A stretch of DNA of 12,895 nt. Origin: a virus. Made by a program: the position numbers and the translations under genes. The stretch's first letter is position 1. Each line of letters starts with the position of its first letter. Under the pieces are notes generated by a model, which was not told the origin of the DNA, made no database searches, and saw nothing but the letters and a program-made list of their open reading frames with translations. Below, piece after piece: positions 1 to 12,895 of the stretch. The stretch lies in the UHGV virus genome UHGV-0182645. One strand, written 5' to 3'.

Positions 1-69
1 ATCGGCAATGCCGAAACCATCGAACTTGAAGAACGGATTGAGTACCACTATAAAATTCAAGTTGAATGA
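1..69 (+). CDS. 3' end of an ORF entering from upstream of the window (C-terminus ...IGNAETIELEERIEYHYKIQVE); product unknown
   Basis: Frame 1 is open from the window edge to TGA at 67-69. Supported only by the open frame and by operon-like packing with the two small ORFs that follow. Confidence 0.25.
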   Translation: MGNAETIELEERIEYHYKIQVE

Positions 70-100
70 TAGCAAGAGATAAGCAAGGAGTCACTACACT

Positions 101-190
101 ATGAACAGCTACTGTCTTTTCCCATCACTCGTTGTCCGCCACTCACGCGATAATCTGCATTCTTTACTCGCGCTGGGGGTGTCAAAATGA
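101..190 (+). CDS. small ORF, 29 aa (MNSYCLFPSLVVRHSRDNLHSLLALGVSK); possible leader or coupled peptide
   Basis: AAGGAG at 85-90 lies 10 nt before ATG 101. Its stop TGA 188-190 overlaps the ATG of the next ORF (ATGA). Below the ORF-track size cutoff; read by hand. Confidence 0.2.
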   Translation: MNSYCLFPSLVVRHSRDNLHSLLALGVSK

Positions 191-354
191 CCGTTCGCTA
201 CCTCAACTTTCAAATCCAGAACATCACTGGCGGTTGCTATGACTGGTTTGTCACTCTCGGAAAAGAAGTGATCACCGGGAAGCTGGATGAAGTGAAAGCT
301 AAAGCAATGGCCTACGCCTGCAAGCAAGCCAGGAAGAAATCCGCCAAAGCATAA
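187..354 (+). CDS. small basic-tailed protein, 55 aa (MTVRYLNFQIQNITGGCYDWFVTLGKEVITGKLDEVKAKAMAYACKQARKKSAKA); function unknown
   Basis: ATG 187 overlaps the upstream stop (ATGA), with a G-rich stretch (CTGGGGG) just upstream. Structured 3' region and an intrinsic terminator follow on the same strand. The antisense track ORF 109-327 has no such signals. Confidence 0.35.
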   Translation: MTVRYLNFQIQNITGGCYDWFVTLGKEVITGKLDEVKAKAMAYACKQARKKSAKA

Positions 355-459
355 AATACTGACTGTTGCGCCCTGACATTATCGTGGGGTATATTTCTAC
401 GGCACCTTAGAAAAACGGGTGCCGGGATTGGTCTCCCGGTAATGTCAAAGGCGACACAT

Positions 460-482
460 AGACGCCACAAGCGTCTTTTTTG
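460..482 (+). terminator. putative rho-independent terminator (stem AGACGC / GCGTCT, loop CACAA, then TTTTTTG)
   Basis: Hairpin followed directly by a T-run on the plus strand, downstream of the small-ORF cluster. Confidence 0.45.
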
Positions 483-645
483 TTGTCGGCGCACTCGCAC
501 ACCTATCAATGGTGGGCTGTGTGGTGGCTTCTTCGGAAGCGCCGGTTCCCTTTGACGCCGGTAAGACCAACTCCACACAGTCCACCGCCAGTAAGATTGG
601 TCTCTTCGGCGGTGGTATCGTTCACTGTCAAAGGAGGCTGCCAAT

Positions 646-861
646 ATGGCTACTATCCCTACCCCAACTCATTCTGAATTTATCTGGCGTTTCTATTCCT
701 GCCAAAAACACCTGTATATCTGCGTCATGGCTGCAACCGAAGCAGAAGCTCGTTCATACCTTCCTGAAGAACCCTGCATTTTTGCCGCACGCTTCACTCT
801 TGATGCGATGGAGATCCTCAATTACTGGAATCTGCCAATGAACTGCGTGGAGGTGCACTGA
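646..861 (+). CDS. hypothetical small protein, 71 aa, translationally coupled to the Rha-family gene
   Basis: AGGAGG at 632-637 lies 8 nt before ATG 646. Stop TGA 859-861 overlaps the ATG of the next gene by 1 nt. Confidence 0.5.
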   Translation: MATIPTPTHSEFIWRFYSCQKHLYICVMAATEAEARSYLPEEPCIFAARFTLDAMEILNYWNLPMNCVEVH

Positions 862-1802
862 TGAATCTGTCCATCTCTCAAAAAGCGACAATGACCAGTA
901 TTGAGATCGCGGAACTGGTAGGTAAGCGTCATGATAATGTGAAGCGTACCATTGAAGTATTAACTAAAGGTGGTGTCATTCAATTTCCTCAAATTGAGGA
1001 AATTGAAAATAAACAATCAGTTGGCCCTCGTCGATTTTCCAAGGCTTACATCTTTGAAGGCGAACAAGGAAAACGAGACAGCATTATTGTCGTCGCGCAG
1101 CTCTCTCCCGAATTCACCGCCCGGCTGGTGGACCGCTGGCGCGAACTGGAGAGTGCCAAAGTACAGTTAAAATCAAAAGCCGAAATTCTGGCTGAAATGG
1201 CGCAAATGCATCTTGAGCATGAACGCCGGATCAACGCCGTTAATGCCCAGGTAGCCGAAGTATCGGCACAAGTGTCCAAAGTCGCTGAAACCGTCGAGCA
1301 AATAAAGAAAGGCAATATGCCGGAAGGCTACATTGGCTACCGCCAGTTGGCGGCGAAATGTGGCCTGACTGAAGCCAAATGTCGCAACCTGGTTAACGCT
1401 TACCGGATTCCCACCGATACACATGAGTTTTTGACCCCCGATGGCTTGCTTGCGCGACGCTCCATTGTGGCTCTGGCCCCCTTCCGGAAAGCCTTCAAGC
1501 AGGTTATGTCGGAGGCAGAACCACGCAACAAACGCTGGTATCATCCCAAGATGGGGCTGTTTCAGGCAATCCATCATCCTTTACCGGAAATCCCAAAAGA
1601 TAATCTGTCACTGCATACCGCCAGAGAGAAGATCAGAAGTGGATATGCAACGGTATGCCGTCGCGCCTCATGGTCTGAAGGTGTATGGGTATGGCCCGAA
1701 GGCGGATCAAGGAAGCACTGGCGCACTATCCGGGATGGGAAAATCCATGCTATTGATTTAGCGCCAGAGGATATGGTTGCTATGGACTGGATTGTTAGTT
1801 AA
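861..1802 (+). CDS. phage regulatory protein, Rha family (antirepressor-like), 313 aa
   Basis: GGAGG at 849-853 lies 7 nt before ATG 861. The N-terminal segment TMTSIEIAELVGKRHDNVKRTIEVL matches the conserved Rha-domain signature (IAE..GK.H.NV.R.I) as I recall it; not search-verified. Confidence 0.7.
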   Translation: MNLSISQKATMTSIEIAELVGKRHDNVKRTIEVLTKGGVIQFPQIEEIENKQSVGPRRFSKAYIFEGEQGKRDSIIVVAQLSPEFTARLVDRWRELESAKVQLKSKAEILAEMAQMHLEHERRINAVNAQVAEVSAQVSKVAETVEQIKKGNMPEGYIGYRQLAAKCGLTEAKCRNLVNAYRIPTDTHEFLTPDGLLARRSIVALAPFRKAFKQVMSEAEPRNKRWYHPKMGLFQAIHHPLPEIPKDNLSLHTAREKIRSGYATVCRRASWSEGVWVWPEGGSRKHWRTIRDGKIHAIDLAPEDMVAMDWIVS

Positions 1803-1810
1803 TTACTGTT

Positions 1811-1838
1811 GCCCCGGCCAGGTCGGGGCTTTAATTTA
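1811..1838 (+). terminator. putative intrinsic terminator between convergent genes (stem GCCCCG / CGGGGC, then TTTAATTTA)
   Basis: GC-rich hairpin 9 nt after the Rha stop, followed by a T-rich tract on the plus strand. Sits between the convergent stops at 1802 and 1839. Confidence 0.4.
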
Positions 1839-2714
1839 CTAGTCCTGCTGACAATTCAGGAACATAAACGCACGTTTGTCCGTTAAATCCGTAACATAAT
1901 ATTCACGAATACCATTCGGTTTTATGCGGCGAGCATACACAAACTTATGAACTGGCTGGTCGCTGCCATAACTAACCTCAGTGCGAAATTCATCGACCGT
2001 GCTACCATCCTTTTCTGTCTCTTTGCGTATCAGCTTATTGTTCAGAACTGGTTGAGTCTCATCCATTCCGCTAAATGCATCTTGCCCGGTACTATTACCC
2101 CGGTTGCCACGTGGTAAATCCCACGAGAAATAAGTCCCATAGTCTGTAATTACCTGATCCCACGCCCCGGCTTCATCCATATAATGACTACGCTTCCCTT
2201 GGTATGTTACGTCAACCTTACAGGAAAACGTTGGCGCGCTATTACTTGCAGCAGAGGCCGTTGAAGATTGTGTAACACTGCCATTGTTGGCATTTCCATA
2301 GTTCCAGCCATCATGCAACGCTTTAACCCACAGATTAGTCAGGGATAGCGTAACATCATTCCCCAGCGCCTGGCTGATTCGAAGCCTCTGTATCCGACGC
2401 AACCCATACTCATAGGCTTCATCGTCATTAATCACTCGCCCACGTTGAGCGGCTACCACCCCAGATTGCCACGCACGATTAATTTCACGAATAAGATACA
2501 CTTGTGGATCAACTCCGTATCTGTTGTATTCATAGTAAAGGCTCATTGCGCCATGTTGGCTCTGGTATTCATTAGCCCATGATATAACCGCGTTTCTTCC
2601 ATAATCCGCGAGCGCAGAATGACTTGACAGAAGAAGAGCAACGCCAACAGTCTTCAGTAATTTGAATCGGAATAACTTTTTAATAATACGATTGGGAAAT
2701 ATGTTTTTGCTCAC
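1839..2714 (-). CDS. secreted or periplasmic protein of unknown function, 291 aa, with predicted N-terminal signal peptide; moron-like accessory gene
   Basis: 876-nt ORF starting at GTG with GAAAGG about 9 nt upstream. N-terminus has a basic n-region (KNIFPNRIIKKLFRFKLLK), a hydrophobic core (TVGVALLLSS) and an AxA-type cleavage motif (SALA/DYG). AT-rich upstream region at 2715-2830. No family recognised. Confidence 0.6.
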   Translation of the reverse strand: MSKNIFPNRIIKKLFRFKLLKTVGVALLLSSHSALADYGRNAVISWANEYQSQHGAMSLYYEYNRYGVDPQVYLIREINRAWQSGVVAAQRGRVINDDEAYEYGLRRIQRLRISQALGNDVTLSLTNLWVKALHDGWNYGNANNGSVTQSSTASAASNSAPTFSCKVDVTYQGKRSHYMDEAGAWDQVITDYGTYFSWDLPRGNRGNSTGQDAFSGMDETQPVLNNKLIRKETEKDGSTVDEFRTEVSYGSDQPVHKFVYARRIKPNGIREYYVTDLTDKRAFMFLNCQQD

Positions 2715-2943
2715 TTTTCAACCTTTCACCACAAATCAAGACTAACAACCCAATAATAATAACTAACCACTCTGTTTTTTTGATAAGCACCAAATCGTTT
2801 ACAAAAAAAATAGCAAATGACTATTGACACTATTCTGGAAATCACAAACTGCACATAATCCATCGCGCTAACGGCTCCCGTTGAAGGTTCTTTTGACGAT
2901 TAACTTTCAGCCGAAGCGCGGTAGGGAGTCATAACGCCAAAGC

Positions 2944-2968
2944 AGGCCGCCATGTGCGGCCTTTTTTT
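2944..2968 (+). terminator. strong rho-independent terminator (stem AGGCCGC / GCGGCCT, loop CATGT, then T7)
   Basis: Perfect GC-rich hairpin followed by TTTTTTT on the plus strand. No plus-strand protein gene lies upstream of it; see findings. Confidence 0.6.
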
Positions 2969-2995
2969 GTATCCGTCATCCGTGGAGGAAGGACA

Positions 2996-3649
2996 ATGGA
3001 AAAGATCGCAATATTCAGCCTGACCACCAGCAAGCCTCAAATGCTCACTGCAATACTGAAAGACGGTGCTCTCATTATTAACGAAGTAAAACCCCTTCCC
3101 GCGTCAGCATTGGAGCAAAAGCAAAAAATTCCTCCAGCTATAGCAGCCCTGCGGAAAAGCAAATTTAAGGTACTGGTAGACGAAATTACGCCAACGATCT
3201 CCGCTGGCACCGGAGCAAGTCAGGTGACTCTCAAGACCCGTCATGCCGATGGTAGAGCAGCAATCATCGTCGGGATGGAAAGATACAGAGAGTTAAAACT
3301 CCAGAAACTATTATCCCTGCCGCAAAATAACAAAGGTGCTTTCGAAATCCCCGACTCTATCGTTGATACCGAATACAATGGTAACGGAGAAGAAGTCTAC
3401 CGGGTGAACTGGCAGGACATCAGGCCGGAACATATTCTTATGATCCTGTGTTGCTACGCGACCGTATACCACAACGTTGCCAGTGCGGATTACGTAGAGC
3501 AGATGACCGGCGCAGTCGAGAAAGAGCAAAAAACAGGCATACTCGCTTCGTTCCTGTCCATTATTGGGCATGAAAAAGTTGAAGCAGGCACCTCCCAGCC
3601 AAAGTCACTGGCTGGGAAAGAAGTTGATGAAGATACCGTGATACTTTGA
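2996..3649 (+). CDS. hypothetical protein, 217 aa
   Basis: GGAGGA at 2984-2989 lies 6 nt before ATG 2996. The track ORF begins at 2954, but that ATG sits in the loop of the terminator hairpin, so I prefer 2996. No family recognised. Confidence 0.65.
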   Translation: MEKIAIFSLTTSKPQMLTAILKDGALIINEVKPLPASALEQKQKIPPAIAALRKSKFKVLVDEITPTISAGTGASQVTLKTRHADGRAAIIVGMERYRELKLQKLLSLPQNNKGAFEIPDSIVDTEYNGNGEEVYRVNWQDIRPEHILMILCCYATVYHNVASADYVEQMTGAVEKEQKTGILASFLSIIGHEKVEAGTSQPKSLAGKEVDEDTVIL

Positions 3650-3977
3650 TCACATTAGTAGCTTTGTTAACTCCCTCAATACCAGGTAGAAGAGTAACAA
3701 AAATATTGACGCCAGTATTTGCGTGGTCAATGAAGCGTTCATAAACAGATCAATTAGCATTAATAATTCGAATATAACATCCATGTCATTCACTCCGTTT
3801 AATTTTTAATCTAATGCCAGCAAATGAAGCTGGCCCCCGCACAAAGATTAATGAAAGTCACTTGTCACCAGTGAGGGGATTTATGAACCACATCCCCCTG
3901 AACTGGTGGCCTGTCTGTTTCTCACATTTCACACCCTGCATACAGTTTCCCCCAGGTTATGACTGAGAGGCTTTGTT

Positions 3978-4307
3978 ATGGGCTATAGCAGACTCGACGA
4001 CAGGTACATTGAAGACGATATTTTTCGTGCGCTGTTTCACCAGGAAATGATTAAGCGGGTATCGGAGTATCACTCTGATAATTTCCAGTACACGATAAAG
4101 ATTGATGAAGTATATCGTTCAGACCTTGCAGCCTACAGGGCGTATGGCAATGCAGATTTGCGCTGGGTATTCCGGGTGCTGGTGGGCCATGAGTCAGAAA
4201 TGGAAGAAATGCCCGCCGGGACCACGTTAACTCTTCCTGATGTGGCATGGCTGAGGAACAAGATCCGTGATTACGCGAGCGCGGAACCGGAGATAGAAAA
4301 TGCCTGA
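3978..4307 (+). CDS. small protein with C-terminal LysM-like / phage tail protein X-like segment (tentative), 109 aa
   Basis: GAGAGG at 3965-3970 lies 7 nt before ATG 3978. The C-terminal stretch YRAYGNADLRWVFRVLVGHESEMEEMPAGTTLTLPDVAWL resembles the P2 gpX pattern (..YYG....VL.....P.GT.V.LPDV) from memory. Its stop overlaps the next start. Confidence 0.55.
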   Translation: MGYSRLDDRYIEDDIFRALFHQEMIKRVSEYHSDNFQYTIKIDEVYRSDLAAYRAYGNADLRWVFRVLVGHESEMEEMPAGTTLTLPDVAWLRNKIRDYASAEPEIENA

Positions 4308-5493
4308 TTTCCTGAAAAACCAGGACGGGCGCTATATCACTGACGGCCTGTCCTCTAAGGACTTCACGCGTTTATTCGACCTTATCAGGAAAGAACAAAC
4401 CCGTAAGCGCCGACAAGCTCACCGGACGCTGACGCCAGGTAGACTGAGGAACAAATCCGCCGAAGATATTCTCAAGTTAGGGAAGAAAAAAGGCGGCACG
4501 TTCTTCACGCGAGACGACCTGAAAGGTTTCGAAAAGCTACGGAGTAAAACACGCGAAAAATATGACAGCAAGACGGCTGGCATCACATACGCCCAGCTGG
4601 TGGCATCCAGCCAGGCAATCGATATTAAGCGTGCAAATAACGCCGTGGATGACGGATCTGGTATCAAAAGAGCTACACCCGTATCTCTTCGCCACAACGT
4701 GATTAATATCCGCGTAGAAGCATCGGATATATCCGTCCACCAGCACCATATCGTCCGGATACGCTTTGAAGAATGGGATCAGATGGTCGATGACATCGCA
4801 GAAGACGATAAATCAGCTCTGAAAATCACTAAATCACTGTGCGCTGGGCGGGTGTCTTTCGATTGTGACTGTGGTCGTCATCAATACTGGTATCGTTACA
4901 TCGCTACTGCGGGTAACTTTGCCCTGGCCCCGCCAAAAGAATACGCCTATCCAAAAGTTCGTAACCCTAAGCTACAAGGCGTCGCCTGTAAACACGTGAT
5001 CCACTCAATGACGCGGTTACAGTCCGCTAGTTGGCAAATGAGTATTGCTCGTGCGTTACAAAAGGCCGCAACGCAAATTGCATTTGGTGACGATCGCCGC
5101 CGTACAACCAAACACTTCTCAAAAGAAGACGAGAGGGAGTTTAATCGCAATCGCAACAGTAAAACAAACGTTGACGCTGCCAAGCGCGAATGGAGGCTCT
5201 ATCAGAAGCGCCAGGCAGCTTTAAGTACAAAACTGGCAAAGGACAACGGCAAGATCGACAAGCTACGTGACCAATTGACCAGGGCCAGAAAGTTGTCAGA
5301 CGCACAGAAAAAACGGGCGGCTGCAAAAGAAGCGGCCTTGCAACGTGAGAAACAGAAAAACAAGGAGCTTCAGCAACGCCTTGCCGATCAGTTCGCACTG
5401 AAGAAGCAAGCGTTCATTGATGCGCTTGTCATGGCTGGAACGCCACAAGAACAGGCTGAGAAGATGTTTATAGAGTACGTGAAAAAAGCATAA
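4300..5493 (+). CDS. 397-aa protein with a CxC...CxH (SWIM-like) putative zinc-binding motif and a highly charged C-terminal coiled-coil-like tail; function unknown
   Basis: ATG 4300 overlaps the upstream stop (ATGCCTGA). Motif FDCDCGRHQYW...GVACKHVIH. The last ~100 aa are K/R/E/Q/A-rich with heptad-like periodicity. Confidence 0.7.
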   Translation: MPDFLKNQDGRYITDGLSSKDFTRLFDLIRKEQTRKRRQAHRTLTPGRLRNKSAEDILKLGKKKGGTFFTRDDLKGFEKLRSKTREKYDSKTAGITYAQLVASSQAIDIKRANNAVDDGSGIKRATPVSLRHNVINIRVEASDISVHQHHIVRIRFEEWDQMVDDIAEDDKSALKITKSLCAGRVSFDCDCGRHQYWYRYIATAGNFALAPPKEYAYPKVRNPKLQGVACKHVIHSMTRLQSASWQMSIARALQKAATQIAFGDDRRRTTKHFSKEDEREFNRNRNSKTNVDAAKREWRLYQKRQAALSTKLAKDNGKIDKLRDQLTRARKLSDAQKKRAAAKEAALQREKQKNKELQQRLADQFALKKQAFIDALVMAGTPQEQAEKMFIEYVKKA

Positions 5494-5526
5494 ACCACAC
5501 ATAGCCTAGTAGTTTATGCTGGGCTT

Positions 5527-6255
5527 TCATTTTTTTGAAAGATCAATTCCAGTATTATCAAACAAACTGGAAATATCAGACACCAATTTATTAAAATGCT
5601 TGTCATCATTATAGAATGATGTGCTTTTTATAGCGACTATAAAATCACATAAATCTTGCGGAGATTCAATGCTAACCCCCTTATTTTTATATAGCTCAAT
5701 AATACTGCCAACATCAGTATGCAATAGTTTTATCGCGCCACAAATTTCTCGCTGTTTCGCAACTAGGTCATTAAGTTTATTTTCATTTTCATCTAAGATT
5801 TGTTTTGAATATTTAGCGTCATTGGTTGCTTGATTTAACTTTGTTTTCTTTCTTTGCAATTCTATTCTTTTATCATAATCAGCAACTTCATCTAAATATC
5901 TTATTTCAGTGTATAATTTACTTGTTAGCTTAGATATCTTCAGTGTGAGAATAGGAGCTAACACAGATGCAAATACTCCATAAACAAATGGGATTACAAC
6001 GTGATAAACCCACGGGGATACAATCCAATTATCAAAGAACGGGACATTGCCACCAACAAAAACAATAGATAATGTATATAGGATGTCGTCCTTTGACTTT
6101 AATATAATTAAAATATCCTTCCAGTTAAAAATTAGAAAAGAAATGACAACATATGCAAAAACCTTGTTAAATATTTTATCTTTTATTATTTCAGAAAATG
6201 ATTTTAGTTCTGTTTCATTTATAGACGGATTATCTGTAACTTTTTCTGACATCAT
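5527..6255 (-). CDS. AT-rich membrane protein, 242 aa: two predicted TM segments, a coiled-coil segment and a C-terminal domain; candidate exclusion or abortive-infection effector
   Basis: AGGAT lies 6 nt before ATG 6255. Hydrophobic segments VFAYVVISFLIFNWKDILIIL and VVIPFVYGVFASVLAPILTL, then a charged heptad-like stretch (RIELQRKKTKLNQATNDAKYSKQILDENENKLNDLVAKQ). Hand-counted G+C in sampled 60-nt stretches is about 23-32%, against about 50% in flanking genes. Confidence 0.65.
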   Translation of the reverse strand: MMSEKVTDNPSINETELKSFSEIIKDKIFNKVFAYVVISFLIFNWKDILIILKSKDDILYTLSIVFVGGNVPFFDNWIVSPWVYHVVIPFVYGVFASVLAPILTLKISKLTSKLYTEIRYLDEVADYDKRIELQRKKTKLNQATNDAKYSKQILDENENKLNDLVAKQREICGAIKLLHTDVGSIIELYKNKGVSIESPQDLCDFIVAIKSTSFYNDDKHFNKLVSDISSLFDNTGIDLSKK

Positions 6256-6276
6256 AGCTTATCCTGATTACTTTTA

Positions 6277-6477
6277 TTATGGATAGTTAAAAGATTCAAC
6301 AGGTGATGGTGGCTGAATTGGGTAATGTTTCTTCTCGTACTCCTCAATGAGAAGACTCATAACCTCAAAGAAATCACCTTCCGGAGTATTCATTTCCGGT
6401 TCGTTATCGAACATCGGTTCGACCGCACGCAGTGCGGCCTCATAATCTTGTTCTGTACGGATAGGTTTAATGTTCAT
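6277..6477 (-). CDS. orphan 66-aa ORF resembling only the N-terminal (non-HTH) part of a longer HigA-type antitoxin; possible gene remnant or small partner of the adjacent membrane protein
   Basis: Sequence MNIKPIRTEQDYEAALRAVEPMFDNEPEMNTPEGDFFEVMSLLIEEYEKKHYPIQPP fits the N-terminal consensus I recall for that antitoxin family (..EYE.AL..I..L.D....PEGD..E.L..LIE.YE..HYPI). The ORF stops where the HTH would start. No clear SD; it starts 12 nt after a terminator hairpin. Confidence 0.4.
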   Translation of the reverse strand: MNIKPIRTEQDYEAALRAVEPMFDNEPEMNTPEGDFFEVMSLLIEEYEKKHYPIQPPSPVESFNYP

Positions 6478-6489
6478 TAATTACAAAGG

Positions 6490-6516
6490 AAAGCCCACTT
6501 GCTAAGTGGGCTTTTT
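6490..6516. terminator. bidirectional-capable intrinsic terminator (10-bp stem AAAGCCCACT / AGTGGGCTTT, loop TGCTA)
   Basis: Perfect 10-bp stem. Followed on the plus strand by TTGTATGTGTTTT and on the minus strand by CCUUUGU. Sits 18 nt past the higA stop. Confidence 0.5.
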
Positions 6517-6533
6517 GTATGTGTTTTACTATA

Positions 6534-6872
6534 TCAGGCTGCTTTTTTATTCAGGTTCCGCTGAGAAATAAATTTTTCAGCAGTATTGATACGACTTAAC
6601 TCTTCCTGAACGCGCATATCATTTTCGACTTCCCACAGATCTACTGCGGTCTGAAGATTAATCCAAAAATCTACAGAAGTATCGAATGCTTTTGCCAGGC
6701 GATATGCCATATCCATCGTTAGCTTACGATTATTATTAACAAGAGCACTTACGGTGTTACGATGAACATGAAGTATTTCTGCTAACTCGTTGATCTTCAG
6801 CTCTAACGGCTCCAGGTATTCGTACAGAAGGATATCACCTACGGTCGTCGGTTTTCTGGTTGCCTGTTTCAT
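6534..6872 (-). CDS. higA: HigA-type antitoxin, XRE-family HTH, 112 aa
   Basis: AAGGG lies about 7 nt before ATG 6872. The protein shows the HigA pattern (PGDIL..EYLEPL...INELAEIL.V....VS.L.N....LT.DMA.RL...F..S..FW.NLQ) and lies immediately downstream of the HigB-like toxin gene. Confidence 0.85.
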   Translation of the reverse strand: MKQATRKPTTVGDILLYEYLEPLELKINELAEILHVHRNTVSALVNNNRKLTMDMAYRLAKAFDTSVDFWINLQTAVDLWEVENDMRVQEELSRINTAEKFISQRNLNKKAA

Positions 6873-6942
6873 TTTTTGCCCTTACTAGCGTGCGTATTAA
6901 GTGGACTCTGGTCAGAACCCGGACCGTAACCGGGAATCTGTT

Positions 6943-7245
6943 TTAGTATTTGTGAGGGTCGAGATACAAGTCCTCGGCCTTTCCGTTAACCCACTTAAAA
7001 ATTAACCTATATTGCTTATTCACCCTTACTGATGAATAGCCATTTAGCTTCCCTGACAGTTCCTCATACCGATTACCTGGTGGTGATCTTAAATCCTTAC
7101 AGGTAGTTGCGGCATTGATAATGTCCAACTTCCGTGACAATGTCATATGAATATCAGGAGGTATCTTTCTATGTGGTGTTGAAAATTCAAAAAAATCATC
7201 AAGCCACGCATCCCTGAAATCCTTTATGTTAATTTTTTTGGTCAT
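6943..7245 (-). CDS. higB: HigB-type toxin (RelE/ParE superfamily, killer-protein family), 100 aa
   Basis: C-terminal signature YEELSGKLNGYSSVRVNKQYRLIFKWVNGKAEDLYLDPHKY matches the HigB killer-protein motif (W/YR..F.F.NGDA..L.Y.DYH) from memory. Toxin-first order with the HTH antitoxin downstream. Confidence 0.85.
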   Translation of the reverse strand: MTKKINIKDFRDAWLDDFFEFSTPHRKIPPDIHMTLSRKLDIINAATTCKDLRSPPGNRYEELSGKLNGYSSVRVNKQYRLIFKWVNGKAEDLYLDPHKY

Positions 7246-7284
7246 TAGTCATTTGATCCTCCGTGATGATTACCGAATGCCATA

Positions 7285-7318
7285 ACTATAGCGCACTGTT
7301 GCACTGTGCGCAAGTGCA
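7285..7318 (-). promoter_or_regulatory. putative higBA promoter with overlapping operator-like repeats (-10 TATAGT; GCACTGT x2 plus inverted GTGCA)
   Basis: On the minus strand, TATAGT (plus coords 7285-7290) sits about 40 nt upstream of the higB ATG. Immediately upstream is GCACTGT-T-GCACTGT-GCGCAA-GTGCA (7293-7318), a typical arrangement for autoregulated TA operators. The -35 is weak (TTGCGC). Confidence 0.35.
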
Positions 7319-7407
7319 TTTTATGGATTCCCCCTCCTTCATCCAAAATCACAATCTCCCGAAAATCTTCCTTTCGATACCTGACAGATCGACCTTTGAG
7401 GATGCTT

Positions 7408-8199
7408 ATGGGCCGTTTTGACGAATGGTTTGCTGACGATGCAAACCTGGCAAGTAAGGAGTCAGAACATGACAGCACGCAGAGAGAAACGCCAGCGCCG
7501 ATTGAAGCGAATGCAGGAGGTGCGCCGGAACATGGCAATACCGGTTCGGATTCATTCAGCATTCTGGAAGAGCAACCCGCCGCCAAAGCTGATAGCCATG
7601 ATAATTTTGCTGATAGCAACGCTGGCCTTACTCCGGATGCTGCCGAATCAGATATAGCCATACTTCCACCTTCCCTGGCTGGCAGAGAACCAACTCCACA
7701 GCTAAAAGCACGCTATAACGGGCATAAAGCCTTTAATGACCAAATCCGCGCAGACTGGATGCTGATTATTGAATCCAGCCCAGACGCGTTTCAGGCTCTC
7801 TTATATCGACCAGATGTTGGCACATATGGGGTAGTCAGCGACGAAACAGGAGAAGAGTCATTCACTGAACTGGATAACAACCAACGCGAACTGACTTACC
7901 AGGAACCTGAAATCGTTTATGTGCTGGATAACCCTGACGGGCGTGACTCTTTCCATGCGATTGACGCAGACGGTGAGCAGGATGGCTTAACCGATGATGT
8001 TCTGATTCTGCGTATTGCAGCAAATAACGTCCCCGTCGGCTCAATTCTTGAATGGAATGAAGAGATGGTAAACGGCGTAGCCCGCCGCTGGTGGTACGTG
8101 CACCGTATTTTTAGCTACGGCACACAGCATGTTGGTTCGCTTTACTACTGCATACCTGCCAGGAATTTTGATACGACTCAAAACGGAGTGATCGAATGA
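7408..8199 (+). CDS. hypothetical protein, 263 aa, with an acidic low-complexity N-terminal half; first gene of a four-gene coupled operon
   Basis: GAGG at 7398-7401 lies 6 nt before ATG 7408. The track ORF starts at GTG 7306, but that would run through the divergent higBA promoter. Stop overlaps the next start (ATGA). Confidence 0.65.
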   Translation: MGRFDEWFADDANLASKESEHDSTQRETPAPIEANAGGAPEHGNTGSDSFSILEEQPAAKADSHDNFADSNAGLTPDAAESDIAILPPSLAGREPTPQLKARYNGHKAFNDQIRADWMLIIESSPDAFQALLYRPDVGTYGVVSDETGEESFTELDNNQRELTYQEPEIVYVLDNPDGRDSFHAIDADGEQDGLTDDVLILRIAANNVPVGSILEWNEEMVNGVARRWWYVHRIFSYGTQHVGSLYYCIPARNFDTTQNGVIE

Positions 8200-8963
8200 C
8201 TTCAAATAAAACCCTCCTGGCGCGAACAGGTGAATGGCAAACCTCACGCACAGGAAAATTCCAGACCACGGGCTTTGAAAACGTGGATAACGCGTTTGCG
8301 ACGCTAATCAGCAACATTTTTTCTGATATCTTACTTGTGGCCCCCGCGCCGGAAGAAAAACGCTTTGCGTCATTCCTGAATCGTCCACCAGCAGAGCGTG
8401 TCTATGTGGCCCGTTTCGACAATGCGATCGAGTTTCTTAAAGCAGTACGTCGCGCAAATGCCGGGCAAGGGAGAAAACCTGAAAACCAGAACATTAACCG
8501 GGATGCTCTCCCCCTGGTCAATATCTCACGCACTATGGATATCAATTATATCAACGATGATCAGCAGATTGACCGCAAAAAAGTAGCCAGTTTTTGCGAA
8601 CCGGATACCGGAATGCCTTTAGCAGAACTGGAATACACCCAGGCCATTCTGACGTATGACGTTACGTTAATGGCAACTGATAAAGCGACCATGAGTCTGA
8701 TGTGTAATTCGCTGGGCGCACGGCTTCGCCTGATGACAGGTACACAATTTGAAGCAACCACTCACCTTGTTCGTGTCCCGGTCCCGCTGATTTGCTCGAT
8801 ACAGGATGCCAAAGAAGTCGGCTTTACGGATGTTTCAGCACCAATTGGAGAAGAGCGTATTTATGCCACACAAGCGCCGATAAGTGTGATTGCAGACGTG
8901 ATCACAGCATGGGAGTTGGACGCAAAACGTATTATTACCGAAACCTCGATATCTATGGGGTGA
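8196..8963 (+). CDS. hypothetical protein, 255 aa
   Basis: ATG 8196 overlaps the upstream stop. Continuous coding-like composition. No family recognised. Confidence 0.65.
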   Translation: MTSNKTLLARTGEWQTSRTGKFQTTGFENVDNAFATLISNIFSDILLVAPAPEEKRFASFLNRPPAERVYVARFDNAIEFLKAVRRANAGQGRKPENQNINRDALPLVNISRTMDINYINDDQQIDRKKVASFCEPDTGMPLAELEYTQAILTYDVTLMATDKATMSLMCNSLGARLRLMTGTQFEATTHLVRVPVPLICSIQDAKEVGFTDVSAPIGEERIYATQAPISVIADVITAWELDAKRIITETSISMG

Positions 8964-8966
8964 TAA

Positions 8967-9947
8967 GTGGCCCAGGAGTTACAACAATATTTTCTACAGT
9001 CAGTGCTCATTAACGATAACAAAGTGCCACGAGACTGGATTTTTACCGCAGTATATGTAGAAAAAACCAGCCTCAAAGCCCCTTTGCTAAAACTGGAAAT
9101 TCATGACGCTACCGGCACCGTAATTGATGACTGGAAAGCAAAATACGGTGCATCGCTGGTGGCTGAAATGGGCGATCCAAACGGTAATGCAGGCACTTTT
9201 AAAACAGATTTCTTTGTTACGTCTGCAATGCTGGCTGGTGATGTTGTTACCGTTATTGCTGTCAGTGAAGACGTGCGCAGGTTTAAGATCCCCTCCCCGC
9301 GCACAAATTTACATACCAACAAAACACCAGACGCTATATTCAAGGCATATTCCGGCAAGCTTAAAATTACCAGCAGCGTGCTAAAACGCGCAGTTACATA
9401 TCATCTGAATGCCGGTGACAAACCGTCAAAAATGCTCTCGCAGATAGCGCGAGACAAAGGTGCATTATGTTGGGTATGCCGTGGGGAATTTAACTTTTAC
9501 ACCCTGGCTGATCTGATGAAGCAAACGCCATCATTTACCTACGAGGGGAATAACCCTAAAGCAGAATACACTTTGTCCAAAATGCGCCTACTCCAACAGG
9601 AACATGCGACAACAGCAAAGAATCAATATCGTTTTGTTGGGTATTCCATGACCGATGGCTACGTCGAATATGGCGATAGCTCACTCCCAGTGCGTTATAT
9701 ATCCGACTCTGATATGGAAACTCTTCGCAATATGCAGCTGTCTCTCGTCCCCAAAATGGATATAGAAGTCGCAGGCAATCCGGATATAAAACCGGGAATG
9801 GTAATAGAGATTATCGTATACCGCTATGACCAGGAAAACCGCATTGATGAATCAATGCCCCGCAAGCTGATAGTAAAAAATGTTGCGCACTTTGAAGACC
9901 GCGTAGGCTACACAACACGAATGATATTAGGAGTGCCGAACAAATGA
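8967..9947 (+). CDS. hypothetical protein, 326 aa (GTG start); possibly a structural or baseplate-associated protein by position
   Basis: GTG 8967 with GGGGTGA upstream, 3 nt after the previous stop. Its stop overlaps the next start (ATGA). A functional guess rests only on adjacency to the spike-like gene. Confidence 0.6.
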   Translation: MAQELQQYFLQSVLINDNKVPRDWIFTAVYVEKTSLKAPLLKLEIHDATGTVIDDWKAKYGASLVAEMGDPNGNAGTFKTDFFVTSAMLAGDVVTVIAVSEDVRRFKIPSPRTNLHTNKTPDAIFKAYSGKLKITSSVLKRAVTYHLNAGDKPSKMLSQIARDKGALCWVCRGEFNFYTLADLMKQTPSFTYEGNNPKAEYTLSKMRLLQQEHATTAKNQYRFVGYSMTDGYVEYGDSSLPVRYISDSDMETLRNMQLSLVPKMDIEVAGNPDIKPGMVIEIIVYRYDQENRIDESMPRKLIVKNVAHFEDRVGYTTRMILGVPNK

Positions 9948-10597
9948 AGCGTAGAGCGCAAATTGTTGGAACTGTGCACCCGGCAGGGCTTATGCGTGCT
10001 CAGGTCCGTGTTTTACCAGACTGGAATGGCGTTCCTGATGACGATCTACCCTGGGCAGAATACCTGTTACCCATAGGTAACGCGTTTGTACCTACAGTAA
10101 AAGGCGACCTGGTATGGGTAGAGTTTCCTTATCTGGATGTTAATGGTCGAATTGATACCAGACGCCCAATGATAGTTGGCGCAGCTCAGGATGCGCCTGG
10201 CGGAGTACCAAACGTCGCGCCGGAGGCGTCAGGCAATGGTAGCGGCTGGACGCCACCAGAAGTAGACGGAGCGCCTCCCCGCCCGCAATTTTCGGCGACA
10301 AAAGATTTCGTGATTCACCGCAACAATGTGCTCGAAGTGCGAACGGCTGGCGGTGGATATGAAATAGCGAATACGGCAGCAGGCTCAAGGATTGGAATGA
10401 ATGAATCAGGGCAGATATACATCATTGGTCCGGCTGATGTAGTAGTGAATGCGGGAGGGAGTGTTAACGTCAAATCAGCCGATAACATCAGCGTTAATGG
10501 CAAAAACATTACTGTGACAGCCGACGAAAATATTGATTTCAAGGCTGGAGGCACCTTCCAGGCTATCGCAAGCAACTTTGATTTCAAGAAGGGATAG
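9944..10597 (+). CDS. gp5/gpV-type spike-like protein (N-terminal OB-fold signature, C-terminal repetitive beta-rich segment), 217 aa
   Basis: N-terminus AQIVGTVHPAGLMRAQVRVLPDW...LPWAEYLLPIGNAFVPTVKGDLVWVEFPY...RRPMIVGA lines up by eye with P2 gpV (GIIVETDLNAGRCRVQT..TDWLQWL...PSVGEQVLIL...FVLPGIY). C-terminus is G/N/V-rich (VVVNAGGSVNVKSADNISVNGKNITVTADENIDFKAGG). Not search-verified. Confidence 0.5.
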   Translation: MKRRAQIVGTVHPAGLMRAQVRVLPDWNGVPDDDLPWAEYLLPIGNAFVPTVKGDLVWVEFPYLDVNGRIDTRRPMIVGAAQDAPGGVPNVAPEASGNGSGWTPPEVDGAPPRPQFSATKDFVIHRNNVLEVRTAGGGYEIANTAAGSRIGMNESGQIYIIGPADVVVNAGGSVNVKSADNISVNGKNITVTADENIDFKAGGTFQAIASNFDFKKG

Positions 10598-10606
10598 AAA
10601 ACACAT

Positions 10607-10650
10607 CCAATTGTGTTAGATAATTGAATAGAATTTTCTAACACAATTGG
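10607..10650. repeat. perfect 14-bp inverted repeat (CCAATTGTGTTAGA ... TCTAACACAATTGG) with a 16-bp AT-rich spacer, just upstream of rdgC
   Basis: Exact reverse complements at 10607-10620 and 10637-10650. The right arm overlaps the rdgC ribosome-binding region (GGTGA at 10649-10653). Confidence 0.6.
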
Positions 10651-10656
10651 TGAAAC

Positions 10657-11562
10657 ATGAGATCAGTCGCTTTCAAAAACATCTTCATCTATCGTCTTTC
10701 ACGTGAAGTTAACTGGAGTGCCGCAGAAGTATCCGATGCTCTTAGCAAATTCGTGTTTACTCCTTGCGGTTCTCAGGACACAGCTAAAGTCGGTTGGACA
10801 CCTGTTCTTGGTGACAACCTCACCCATGAATACCAGGGTTTTCTGCTAATACAGCATAAGCGAGAAGAAAAAATTCTCCCCTCGCAGGTGCTCAAGGAAG
10901 AGTTGCAGAAAAAAGTCCTGAAACTCGAAGAAGAGCAAGCCCGCAAGCTGAAGAAAACGGAAAGAGACAGTCTTAAAGATGAAGTCCTGCATTCACTTTT
11001 GCCTCGCGCGTTCACGAGAAAATCACTCGCCAAAATCCTGATCGACCGCAGCAACCATCTGGTATTCGTTGAGGCAAGCAGCGCCAAAAAGGCAGAGGAC
11101 CAGCTGGCTTTATTGCGAAAGTCGCTCGGCAGCCTGCCTGTCATTCCATTCACACCACGCGAACCGCTGGAAATTACAATGACCGAGTGGTTTAAAAGCG
11201 GCTTCCCTGCCGGATTTACAGCAGGTGAAGACGCCACATTAAAGGGTCTGCTCGATAATGGTGGTGCCGTTCGCTGCAACAAAGTTGATCTACAGTCCGA
11301 CGAGATTATGTCTCACATTGAGGCGGGGAAAGTAGCTACGACCGTTGCAATTAACTGGATGGACCGTGCGTCGTTCAGAGTCAACGATGATATGAGTATC
11401 AAAGCCCTGACATTCTGTGATGATCTCTATGACCAGAACGACGATATCGACCGGGAGGATGTAGCACAACGATTTGATGCTGATTTCGTGCTCTTTACGG
11501 GCGAATTATCTGCACTGTTTAACGCGCTGGTGGAGGCCATTGGCGGTGAAGCAGAACGATAA
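10657..11562 (+). CDS. rdgC: recombination-associated protein RdgC homolog, 301 aa
   Basis: Near-colinear by-eye match to E. coli RdgC over the full length, for example [94 protein letters not shown] and GGEA. GGTGA lies 4 nt before the ATG. Confidence 0.9.
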
Positions 11563-11578
11563 TAACCGACCGCTTGTT

Positions 11579-12226
11579 GTGAGTCTTTGTGATTTTACGG
11601 GGGCAATGGTTGCCCCCTGGCTGGAATACGGTGTCGATGCCGCTATCGTCGATCCACAGCACTTATCGACCAGTGACGAGCGGATGCAATCAGGTGCCGT
11701 TCTGACGCGTATTAGTGCGATCATCGATAGCGATGAAGTATACGCTTTTCTCCGTAAGAATTTGCAGCGCATCGTGTTTCTGGCCGGGTTCCCACCGTGT
11801 ACTGACCTGGCTGTTTCCGGCGCGCGCTGGTTTTCGGACAAGGCTAATAAAGATCCGGTTTTCCAGTTCAAAGCAATGCAGGTTGTCTGGCAGTGTTATG
11901 ACATTGCAAAGATGATCGGTTGTCCGTACATGATTGAAAATCCGGTCAGCAAAATATCGACATTCTGGCGTAAGCCAGATCACATCTTTCACCCTTACTT
12001 CTTCACTGCATATTGTCAGGAAGATAACTACACCAAAAAAACATGCCTCTGGAGCGGCCAGGGCTTTGTCATGCCTGATGCCCTAATGGACGAATCATTA
12101 GGCAAGCCAGATAACAGAATCCATGCCGCGCCACCAGGGCCTGACAGGGCTAATTTCCGAAGTGCTACTCCACATGGATTCGCAAAGGCAGTTTTCGAAG
12201 CGAATAAGGGGGTGCTCTATGAGTAA
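11579..12226 (+). CDS. compact C5-cytosine-methyltransferase-like protein (motif I-like, PPC in place of PCQ, ENP in place of ENV, C-terminal motif-X-like), about 215 aa; start uncertain
   Basis: VVSLCDFTGAMVAPWLEYGVDAAIVD resembles motif I of C5-MTases, FLAGFPPCTDLAVSG resembles motif IV (GFPCQ.FS.SG), and YMIENPVS resembles motif VI. There is no room for a normal target-recognition domain. I chose GTG 11579 to retain motif I without overlapping rdgC; ATG 11606 and ATG 11474 are alternatives. Confidence 0.5.
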   Translation: MSLCDFTGAMVAPWLEYGVDAAIVDPQHLSTSDERMQSGAVLTRISAIIDSDEVYAFLRKNLQRIVFLAGFPPCTDLAVSGARWFSDKANKDPVFQFKAMQVVWQCYDIAKMIGCPYMIENPVSKISTFWRKPDHIFHPYFFTAYCQEDNYTKKTCLWSGQGFVMPDALMDESLGKPDNRIHAAPPGPDRANFRSATPHGFAKAVFEANKGVLYE

Positions 12227-12857
12227 ATCTATAGCAAGCATAGCCATAGAAAAACAGGATACGATGGCTGAAATTAGCTATATGCGCACCATTCGGACTC
12301 CGGATGAATATGAGCGTCCGATATTCAAATGGGTAGGTGGTAAATTCTCAGAATTGCCTACAGTGCTTGAGCATCTACCACACGGTAAGCGGTTAATAGA
12401 ACCATTCGTTGGTGGCGGTTCCGTATTTACGAATGCAGGATTTCGCCACAACCTGCTTAATGATATTAACGGTGACCTGATTAACTTCTATCAGACATTG
12501 CAGCGAGAAGGACATTCGCTCGTCACGCTGTCATATAGTTTTTTCAAAAATTACAACAACGCTGACGCTTACCTCGAAGTGCGTGAGGCATTTAACAGAG
12601 GAAAATATGACCAGCTACATCATGCTGCCGCATTTTTGTACCTTAATCGTCACTGTTTTAATGGCGTAACGCGGTACAACCAAAATGGCGAGTTCAACGT
12701 GGGGTATGGCAAATACAAAGCGCCCTACTTCCCACATGCAGAGATGGAGGCATTTTTGGCTGATGACGTACTCAAAAACACTTCCTTTGTATCAGGAGAC
12801 TTTGCTAGCGTCATCGAGGCAGCTGGTGCATCCGACGCCGATTTTGTGTACCGATAA
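12219..12857 (+). pseudogene. Dam-family (D12 class) N6-adenine methyltransferase-like ORF, apparently truncated just before the catalytic DPPY motif
   Basis: Colinear by-eye match to E. coli Dam from FKWVGGK through EPFVGGGSVF, LNDINGDLINFY, FLYLNRHCFNGVTRYNQNGEFNVGYGKYKAPYFPHAEMEAF to ...ASDADFVYR, then TAA at 12855-12857. In Dam the equivalent position reads ...DASVVYCDPPY. AAGGGGG lies 6 nt before ATG 12219; ATG 12264 is an alternative start. None of the three frames after the stop encodes DPPY within the remaining 38 nt. Confidence 0.65.
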
Positions 12858-12895
12858 TGCTGTAATGATTGCCTGCCGCGGTTATTTTATGTATC

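Follow-up and report, generated by a model that had tools for sequence, protein, structure and literature searches.

Near the right-hand end of the virus genome UHGV-0182645, the whole 12,895-nt stretch of which was analysed and is referred to here as the window, a reading frame that closely resembles the gene for the adenine methyltransferase Dam stops just before the place where its catalytic DPPY motif would be expected. This raises the question of whether the gene has been broken by a rearrangement or insertion, is kept as a catalytically dead fragment, carries a false stop introduced by a sequencing error, or has been cut off by the way in which the contig was made. The window amounts to one complete contig, assembled from the short reads of a human gut metagenome, of a D6-like phage-plasmid present at low coverage, and the truncation of dam is most likely an artefact: the gene looks cut off because its sequence gives way, over the last 76 bases, to that of tsaD, an unrelated gene of Phascolarctobacterium. 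A chimeric read or an assembly artefact at a low-coverage contig end is favoured as the cause, with a probability of roughly 0.88.

The Dam-like reading frame and its phage-plasmid setting

The reading frame (Table 1) starts 8 nt inside the preceding ORF, downstream of a G-rich stretch (GGGGG at 12208-12212), and its stop is followed by 38 nt to the window end. By its profile matches the predicted 212-aa product is a clear member of the Dam family (D12 class) over its N-terminal part, scoring 171.7 bits against TIGR00571 (cutoff 114.85) and 135.6 bits against PF02086 (E = 3e-39, cutoff 22). These matches cover positions 2-178 of 267 in TIGR00571 and 1-180 of 253 in PF02086 and thus fall short of a full-length Dam domain, whereas Dam of phage D6 covers TIGR00571 end to end (2-265 of 267). 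The AdoMet-binding motif FxGxG is present, EPFVGGGSVF of the window ORF aligning with EPFVGAGSVF of E. coli Dam, and catalytic motif IV, (D/N)PPY, is absent from the 212-aa ORF and from all frames of the following 38 nt. A sequence-only reading of this locus had described a Dam-like ORF that stops just short of DPPY, with no frame of the last 38 nt encoding the motif; the former was borne out by the ORF translation and the profile matches, and the latter was confirmed as well. The same reading had allowed that DPPY might lie elsewhere in the ORF through a faulty alignment, which it does not, and the DPPY of the D6 orthologue aligns with ...ASVVYCDPPY of E. coli Dam.

Table 1. Features assigned in the window, with coordinates, strand and basis
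Feature	Coordinates	Strand	Basis or remark
Second foreign tail	1..80		GC 39%; frame +1 reads ...IGNAETIELEERIEYHYKIQVE followed by two stops
D6-like (P1-related) E. coli phage-plasmid segment	81..12828		Single 98.6%-identical piece versus pPSS-08-1_2
orf64 homologue, methyltransferase-like, 226 aa	11546..12226	+	phrog_757 'DNA methyltransferase', E = 3e-78; D6 orf64 annotation
Dam-like ORF as it stands, 212 aa	12219..12857	+	ATG at 12219 to TAA; C-terminal end ...VIEAAGASDADFVYR
Genuine 5' part of phage-plasmid dam	12219..12819	+	Codons 1-200 and first base of codon 201
Crossover zone CAGCTGGTG	12820..12828		Three-way base-by-base comparison
Phascolarctobacterium tsaD fragment	12820..12895	+	Codons 297-321 of 340; tsaD frame reads QLVHPTPILCTDNAVMIACRGYFMY
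TAA ending the Dam-like ORF	12855..12857	+	tsaD sequence ...ACC GAT AAT GCT... read in the wrong frame

Nearly all of the window is occupied by a segment of a D6-like E. coli phage-plasmid, D6 itself being a P1-related (P1-like) phage-plasmid (PMC7969092, PMC10879196). This segment contains the icd/Rha region, tail and baseplate genes, higBA, rdgC, orf64 and the 5' two-thirds of dam, and by colinearity and gene order the window belongs with the D6-like phage-plasmids. Its best match over the whole window is pPSS-08-1_2, in a single colinear piece, and at least 80% of the window is covered by 70 E. coli plasmids. Among the matches listed, the limits of the match are exactly those of the segment in all E. 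coli (27) and plasmid (15) records, and the match in the dam region ends at 12828 in 27 of the 27 E. coli records listed, out of 100 that match. Over 12100-12828 the window shares 98.8% identity with Escherichia phage D6 and 99.9% with several E. coli plasmids of ~90 kb. Elements of this kind that match the window were found only in E. coli, Salmonella and Shigella.

Two further genes of the segment deserve mention. The orf64 homologue has no match in Pfam or NCBIfam and matches phrog_757, annotated as 'DNA methyltransferase', while Dam matches positions 510-686 of the 779 in phrog_116; together with the 8-nt overlap of the two genes, this suggests that orf64 and dam may correspond to a single fused protein in Dmt of the P1 type. 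The Rha-family (antirepressor-like) gene at 861-1802 is intact and encodes 313 aa; this exact protein is rare, with 7 contigs on record, and its counterpart in pPSS-08-1_2 is labelled by PGAP as a C-terminally truncated pseudogene.

In D6 the gene that corresponds to the window ORF is orf63, encoding a 301-aa 'site-specific DNA-adenine methylase' (ASR76355.1) that aligns with E. coli Dam at E = 2e-58 and reads ...VIEAAGEGDVIFCDPPYEPL... where the window ORF breaks off, with ...EAAGEGDVIFCDPPY across the motif region. Residues 1-203 of the window product are essentially identical to those of D6 Dam and of the Dams of D6-like plasmids (98.8-99.9% at the nucleotide level), and the gene has the same neighbours, rdgC and orf64, and the same overlap with orf64; in D6, rdgC and orf64 lie upstream and a glnS copy lies downstream. 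The difference is that the window copy is without everything from motif IV (DPPY) onward, residues 204-301, and has out-of-frame tsaD instead. More distant relatives of the D6-like enzyme are E. coli Dam (PDB 2g1p, 4gbe) and the Dam-like part of P1 Dmt. The complete gene is widely held among close relatives: at least 80% of the 906-nt dam is present in 98 of the 101 E. coli plasmids that have the gene, and an identical orf64 protein is followed by a 301-aa D12 methyltransferase in 10 of 10 places. By analogy, the intact 301-aa enzyme presumably targets GATC, in a role like that of E. coli Dam or the Dam domain of P1 Dmt.

The breakpoint and the two foreign tails

The Dam homology of the ORF stops at residue 203 (nt 12828), and the breakpoint at which it gives way to unrelated DNA is sharp, sitting 27-36 nt upstream of the ORF stop. 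On its left, 12780-12819 is identical to the plasmid pLD93-1-90kb at 40 of 40 positions, against 9 of 40 for Phascolarctobacterium; on its right, 12829-12895 is identical to Phascolarctobacterium at 67 of 67 positions, against 20 of 67 for pLD93-1-90kb and 17-20 of 67, which is chance level, for D6-like relatives. Within the crossover zone, the C at 12820 and the GCTGGTG at 12822-12828 are common to both parents, while at 12821 the window has A, as Phascolarctobacterium does, in place of the G of the three D6-like sequences aligned. The genuine dam part to the left of this zone, which includes the AdoMet-binding EPFVGGGSVF motif, is 99.9% identical to pLD93-1-90kb and others.

To the right of the breakpoint, the 76-nt tail is identical at 76 of 76 positions in 16 gut-metagenome contigs and 96-99% identical to all other tsaD loci fetched. 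An exact 34-nt stretch of it occurs in 4 Phascolarctobacterium genomes, in 2 contigs filed under other names and in 77 human-gut metagenome contigs, and nowhere in IMG/VR; a search of 5,426 complete E. coli genomes gave no match to the tail, and one of plasmids gave chance-level matches only. It sits inside a 340-aa TsaD ORF (locus L016; TIGR03723, 448.5 bits, cutoff 296.1; PF00814), where it corresponds to the conserved ...HPTPILCTDNAVMIA... C-terminal region of tsaD from Phascolarctobacterium succinatutens and its relatives, a genus classed in the Negativicutes (gut Firmicutes). The gene tsaD encodes tRNA N6-adenosine threonylcarbamoyltransferase, of the TsaD/Kae1/Qri7 family. In contrast to that gene, the window has 25 codons only, fused out of frame after dam and without start, promoter or remainder, so that it holds no tsaD gene. 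Two loci with tsaD stretches 98.7% identical over the 76 nt, CAVCLW010000006.1 and CAVKUS010000011.1, are filed in 'Escherichia coli' and 'Bacteroides sp. CAG:545' bins, respectively, of a species-representative genome collection, and these look like mis-binned contigs.

The predicted last nine residues of the ORF, ASDADFVYR, and its stop codon are thus foreign tsaD read out of frame and not diverged Dam, and their likeness to 'DDASVVYC' of Dam is a coincidence, as the residues come from foreign DNA. The Dam likeness that had been followed as far as ASDADFVYR therefore stands through residue 203 and fails for the remainder. It is only because foreign sequence replaces both that the window dam is without motif IV and the full domain length. 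As a gene, the window dam is the 5' two-thirds of the already known D6-type dam, and the tail comes from within a housekeeping gene that is likewise known.

The opposite end, on the left, is foreign as well. Positions 1-80, which are foreign to all D6-like relatives, look like the last 22 codons of some gene; they match no E. coli genome, match plasmids and phages at chance level only, and have no match among all fetched loci, including ~80 from Phascolarctobacterium; two stretches of 36-38 nt were absent from an exact scan of the viral contigs of IMG/VR. The best lead, a Clostridium 'linear amide C-N hydrolase' gene, is not significant (E = 8). In two contigs from the same strain (NODE_408, k119_56980) the sequence does not break at position 81 but continues to the left into normal D6-like neighbours (Ref nuclease, DUF4406), so the left tail is not part of the plasmid and the left end is a demonstrable chimera. 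At 80 and 76 nt, neither foreign tail is as long as a typical short read.

The search for a mobile-element signature also bears on the right-hand join. No terminal repeats or IS-like features are common to both window ends, and no repeat links both ends or flanks the breakpoint, as IS, transposon or att features would. An IS or att junction was rejected on these grounds and because what lies past the junction is internal housekeeping-gene sequence; the foreign DNA is neither an IS end nor an att site nor a displaced half of the gene, for all of which the sequence-only reading had advised looking. The idea that the gene is truncated at a junction fared better in part, since unrelated DNA is indeed joined to dam at a sharp breakpoint, though a chimeric contig end is favoured over a pseudogene.

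Origin of the junction

Contigs from three other assemblies correspond to the same strain. In ERZ914733 (run ERR589837 of PRJEB6997, human gut), k127_39236 equals window 12-12895 with one internal mismatch, its left tail being 11 nt shorter and differing at window positions 12-14 and 37. In ERZ27262670, k119_68736 equals window 6924-12895 with at most 1 mismatch and k119_56980 equals window 81-6926 with 1 mismatch in 6,846 nt. In ERZ773112, NODE_408 (29,296 nt) equals window 81-11802 and extends a further 1,065 nt to the right, with 1 mismatch in the 11,722 nt compared and a k-mer coverage of only 4.4. Each of these contigs thus differs from the window by at most 1 mismatch, against 0.7-3% for other D6-like plasmids, and from this near-identity and the common last base we infer that a single read set underlies the window and the three assemblies.

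The exact 212-aa chimeric protein occurs in only 2 contigs, k127_39236 and k119_68736, among ~15 billion proteins. Both are MEGAHIT contigs and both end at the exact last base of the window, 38 nt past the stop, so that the dam-tsaD junction is present in three assemblies counting the window; NODE_408 is not listed as a carrier of the chimeric ORF, though it would be expected to reach approximately window 12867, and this is the one indirect sign in these assemblies of a true 3' half of dam. No Phascolarctobacterium polymorphism at the base after 12895 was found among the contigs compared, and there is thus nothing at that base to make an assembly graph branch. The identical last base and the lack of polymorphism at the next one together point to a dead end imposed by the one read or fragment that crosses the junction. 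The length of 12819-12895, 77 nt, would also agree with a unitig end at k = 77, a reading that is not relied on here because the MEGAHIT default k list for the k119 assembly presumably has no k = 77.

The junction behaves like a known class of artefact, the chimeric contig ends of short-read metagenome assemblies, with which it shares sub-read-length foreign tails at both window ends, an identical dead-end base across assemblies, 4.4x coverage and a normal left flank in other contigs; in the present case the evidence for an in vitro origin comes from the assemblies. The gut sample would have held Phascolarctobacterium together with low-depth E. coli carrying the plasmid, and a chimeric fragment would have joined plasmid dam at nt 12820 to the interior of tsaD, probably on the C/GCTGGTG microhomology by template switching or ligation during library preparation. 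Once plasmid coverage gave out, a MEGAHIT-type assembler would then probably have extended the contig along the chimeric read as far as that read's final base. In the frame of dam, tsaD contributes nine unrelated codons and then TAA, and a gene caller would report a 212-aa Dam without DPPY. The real plasmid would run from 12820 into the normal 3' half of dam, ...GAAGACGATGTGATTTTTTGTGATCCGCCGTAT, and would most likely encode the usual intact 301-aa Dam-family methyltransferase. The join would on this evidence have arisen in vitro or in silico, and not in the cell.

Three points speak against an artefact, namely that the junction recurs in three assemblies, that illegitimate recombination in living cells also produces joins with 7-9 nt of microhomology, and that for both ends of a contig to be chimeric by chance is somewhat unusual. 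They bear on the best of the rival explanations, in which a D6-like phage-plasmid would have recombined illegitimately with a Phascolarctobacterium chromosome on GCTGGTG, destroying dam and gaining Firmicute DNA; the clean join, the reproduction of that join and a tail that matches a co-resident gut species at 100% are all as such an event would leave them. Phascolarctobacterium is a strictly anaerobic Negativicute, however, and since the D6-like elements found here were only in E. coli, Salmonella and Shigella, no shared host is seen. The junction is moreover confined to one strain, every assembly that has it breaks off at the same base, the left-hand contig end is demonstrably chimeric, and the relatives have a full-length dam, which together make a real junction improbable.

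A second possibility is that this plasmid lineage retains a naturally truncated, catalytically dead N-terminal Dam fragment, whether as a pseudogene or as a remnant that binds DNA or AdoMet, as the sequence-only reading had proposed in suggesting retention for binding. The ORF as written, with its FxGxG motif and without DPPY, has the appearance of such a protein, yet the truncation is made by foreign tsaD and not by a mutation of dam, no relative shares it, most or all of the gene is held by nearly all plasmids that carry it, and the chimeric protein is found on two contigs of one strain only. Retention for binding thus finds no support, and this explanation is very improbable.

Still less probable is the insertion of a 12.7-kb piece of phage-plasmid within tsaD on a Phascolarctobacterium chromosome, to which the tsaD sequence of the right flank might seem to point. 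In that case the left flank should be upstream tsaD, and positions 1-80 match neither tsaD nor the ~80 Phascolarctobacterium loci (several kb each around tsaD), which excludes a simple insertion; in addition, tsaD is uninterrupted in both Phascolarctobacterium loci read (L006, L016), and normal plasmid DNA lies to the left of position 81 in the same strain. Lastly, a base-calling error or frameshift near 12855 that makes a false stop in an intact gene, for which the position of the stop is the only argument, is ruled out, because from 12829 to the window end the agreement with D6-like relatives over 67 bases in a row is no better than chance, and no frame encodes DPPY.

Implications and the surroundings of dam in relatives

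The chimeric contig end favoured here calls for caution with any 'truncated' or 'catalytically dead' gene that lies no farther than a read length from the end of a contig: a chimeric tail should be tested for before such a gene is taken for a pseudogene, a neofunctionalised fragment or the mark of a rearrangement. Public protein collections already list the chimeric ORF discussed here as a complete 212-aa protein. Were the junction true, the passage of Firmicute DNA into an enterobacterial phage-plasmid would have been recorded directly, which is rare: a fresh inter-phylum transfer into a transducing phage-plasmid in the human gut at the cost of its Dam methylase; nothing in the present data favours this.

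Several features of dam and its neighbours in the relatives were observed in passing. In two loci (L001, 3186-4025; L003, 14724-15563), the intact D6-like dam is annotated by RefSeq/PGAP as a pseudogene 'missing N-terminus' despite a complete 301-aa ORF. The glnS copy that normally lies downstream of dam is absent in pPSS-08-1_2 and some relatives (L003, 15563-15707; L109, L111), in which the par region follows directly after dam. Several contigs of 208 kb to 823 kb have genes that flank the chromosomal glnS of E. coli beside their D6-like orf64-dam-glnS block: a PTS EIICBA gene adjoins glnS in L097, L099/L118 and L112, and FUR, YbfN and OprD-like genes lie upstream of orf64 in L100. These arrangements would be consistent either with integration of D6-like elements via glnS homology or with assembly collapse at the shared glnS.
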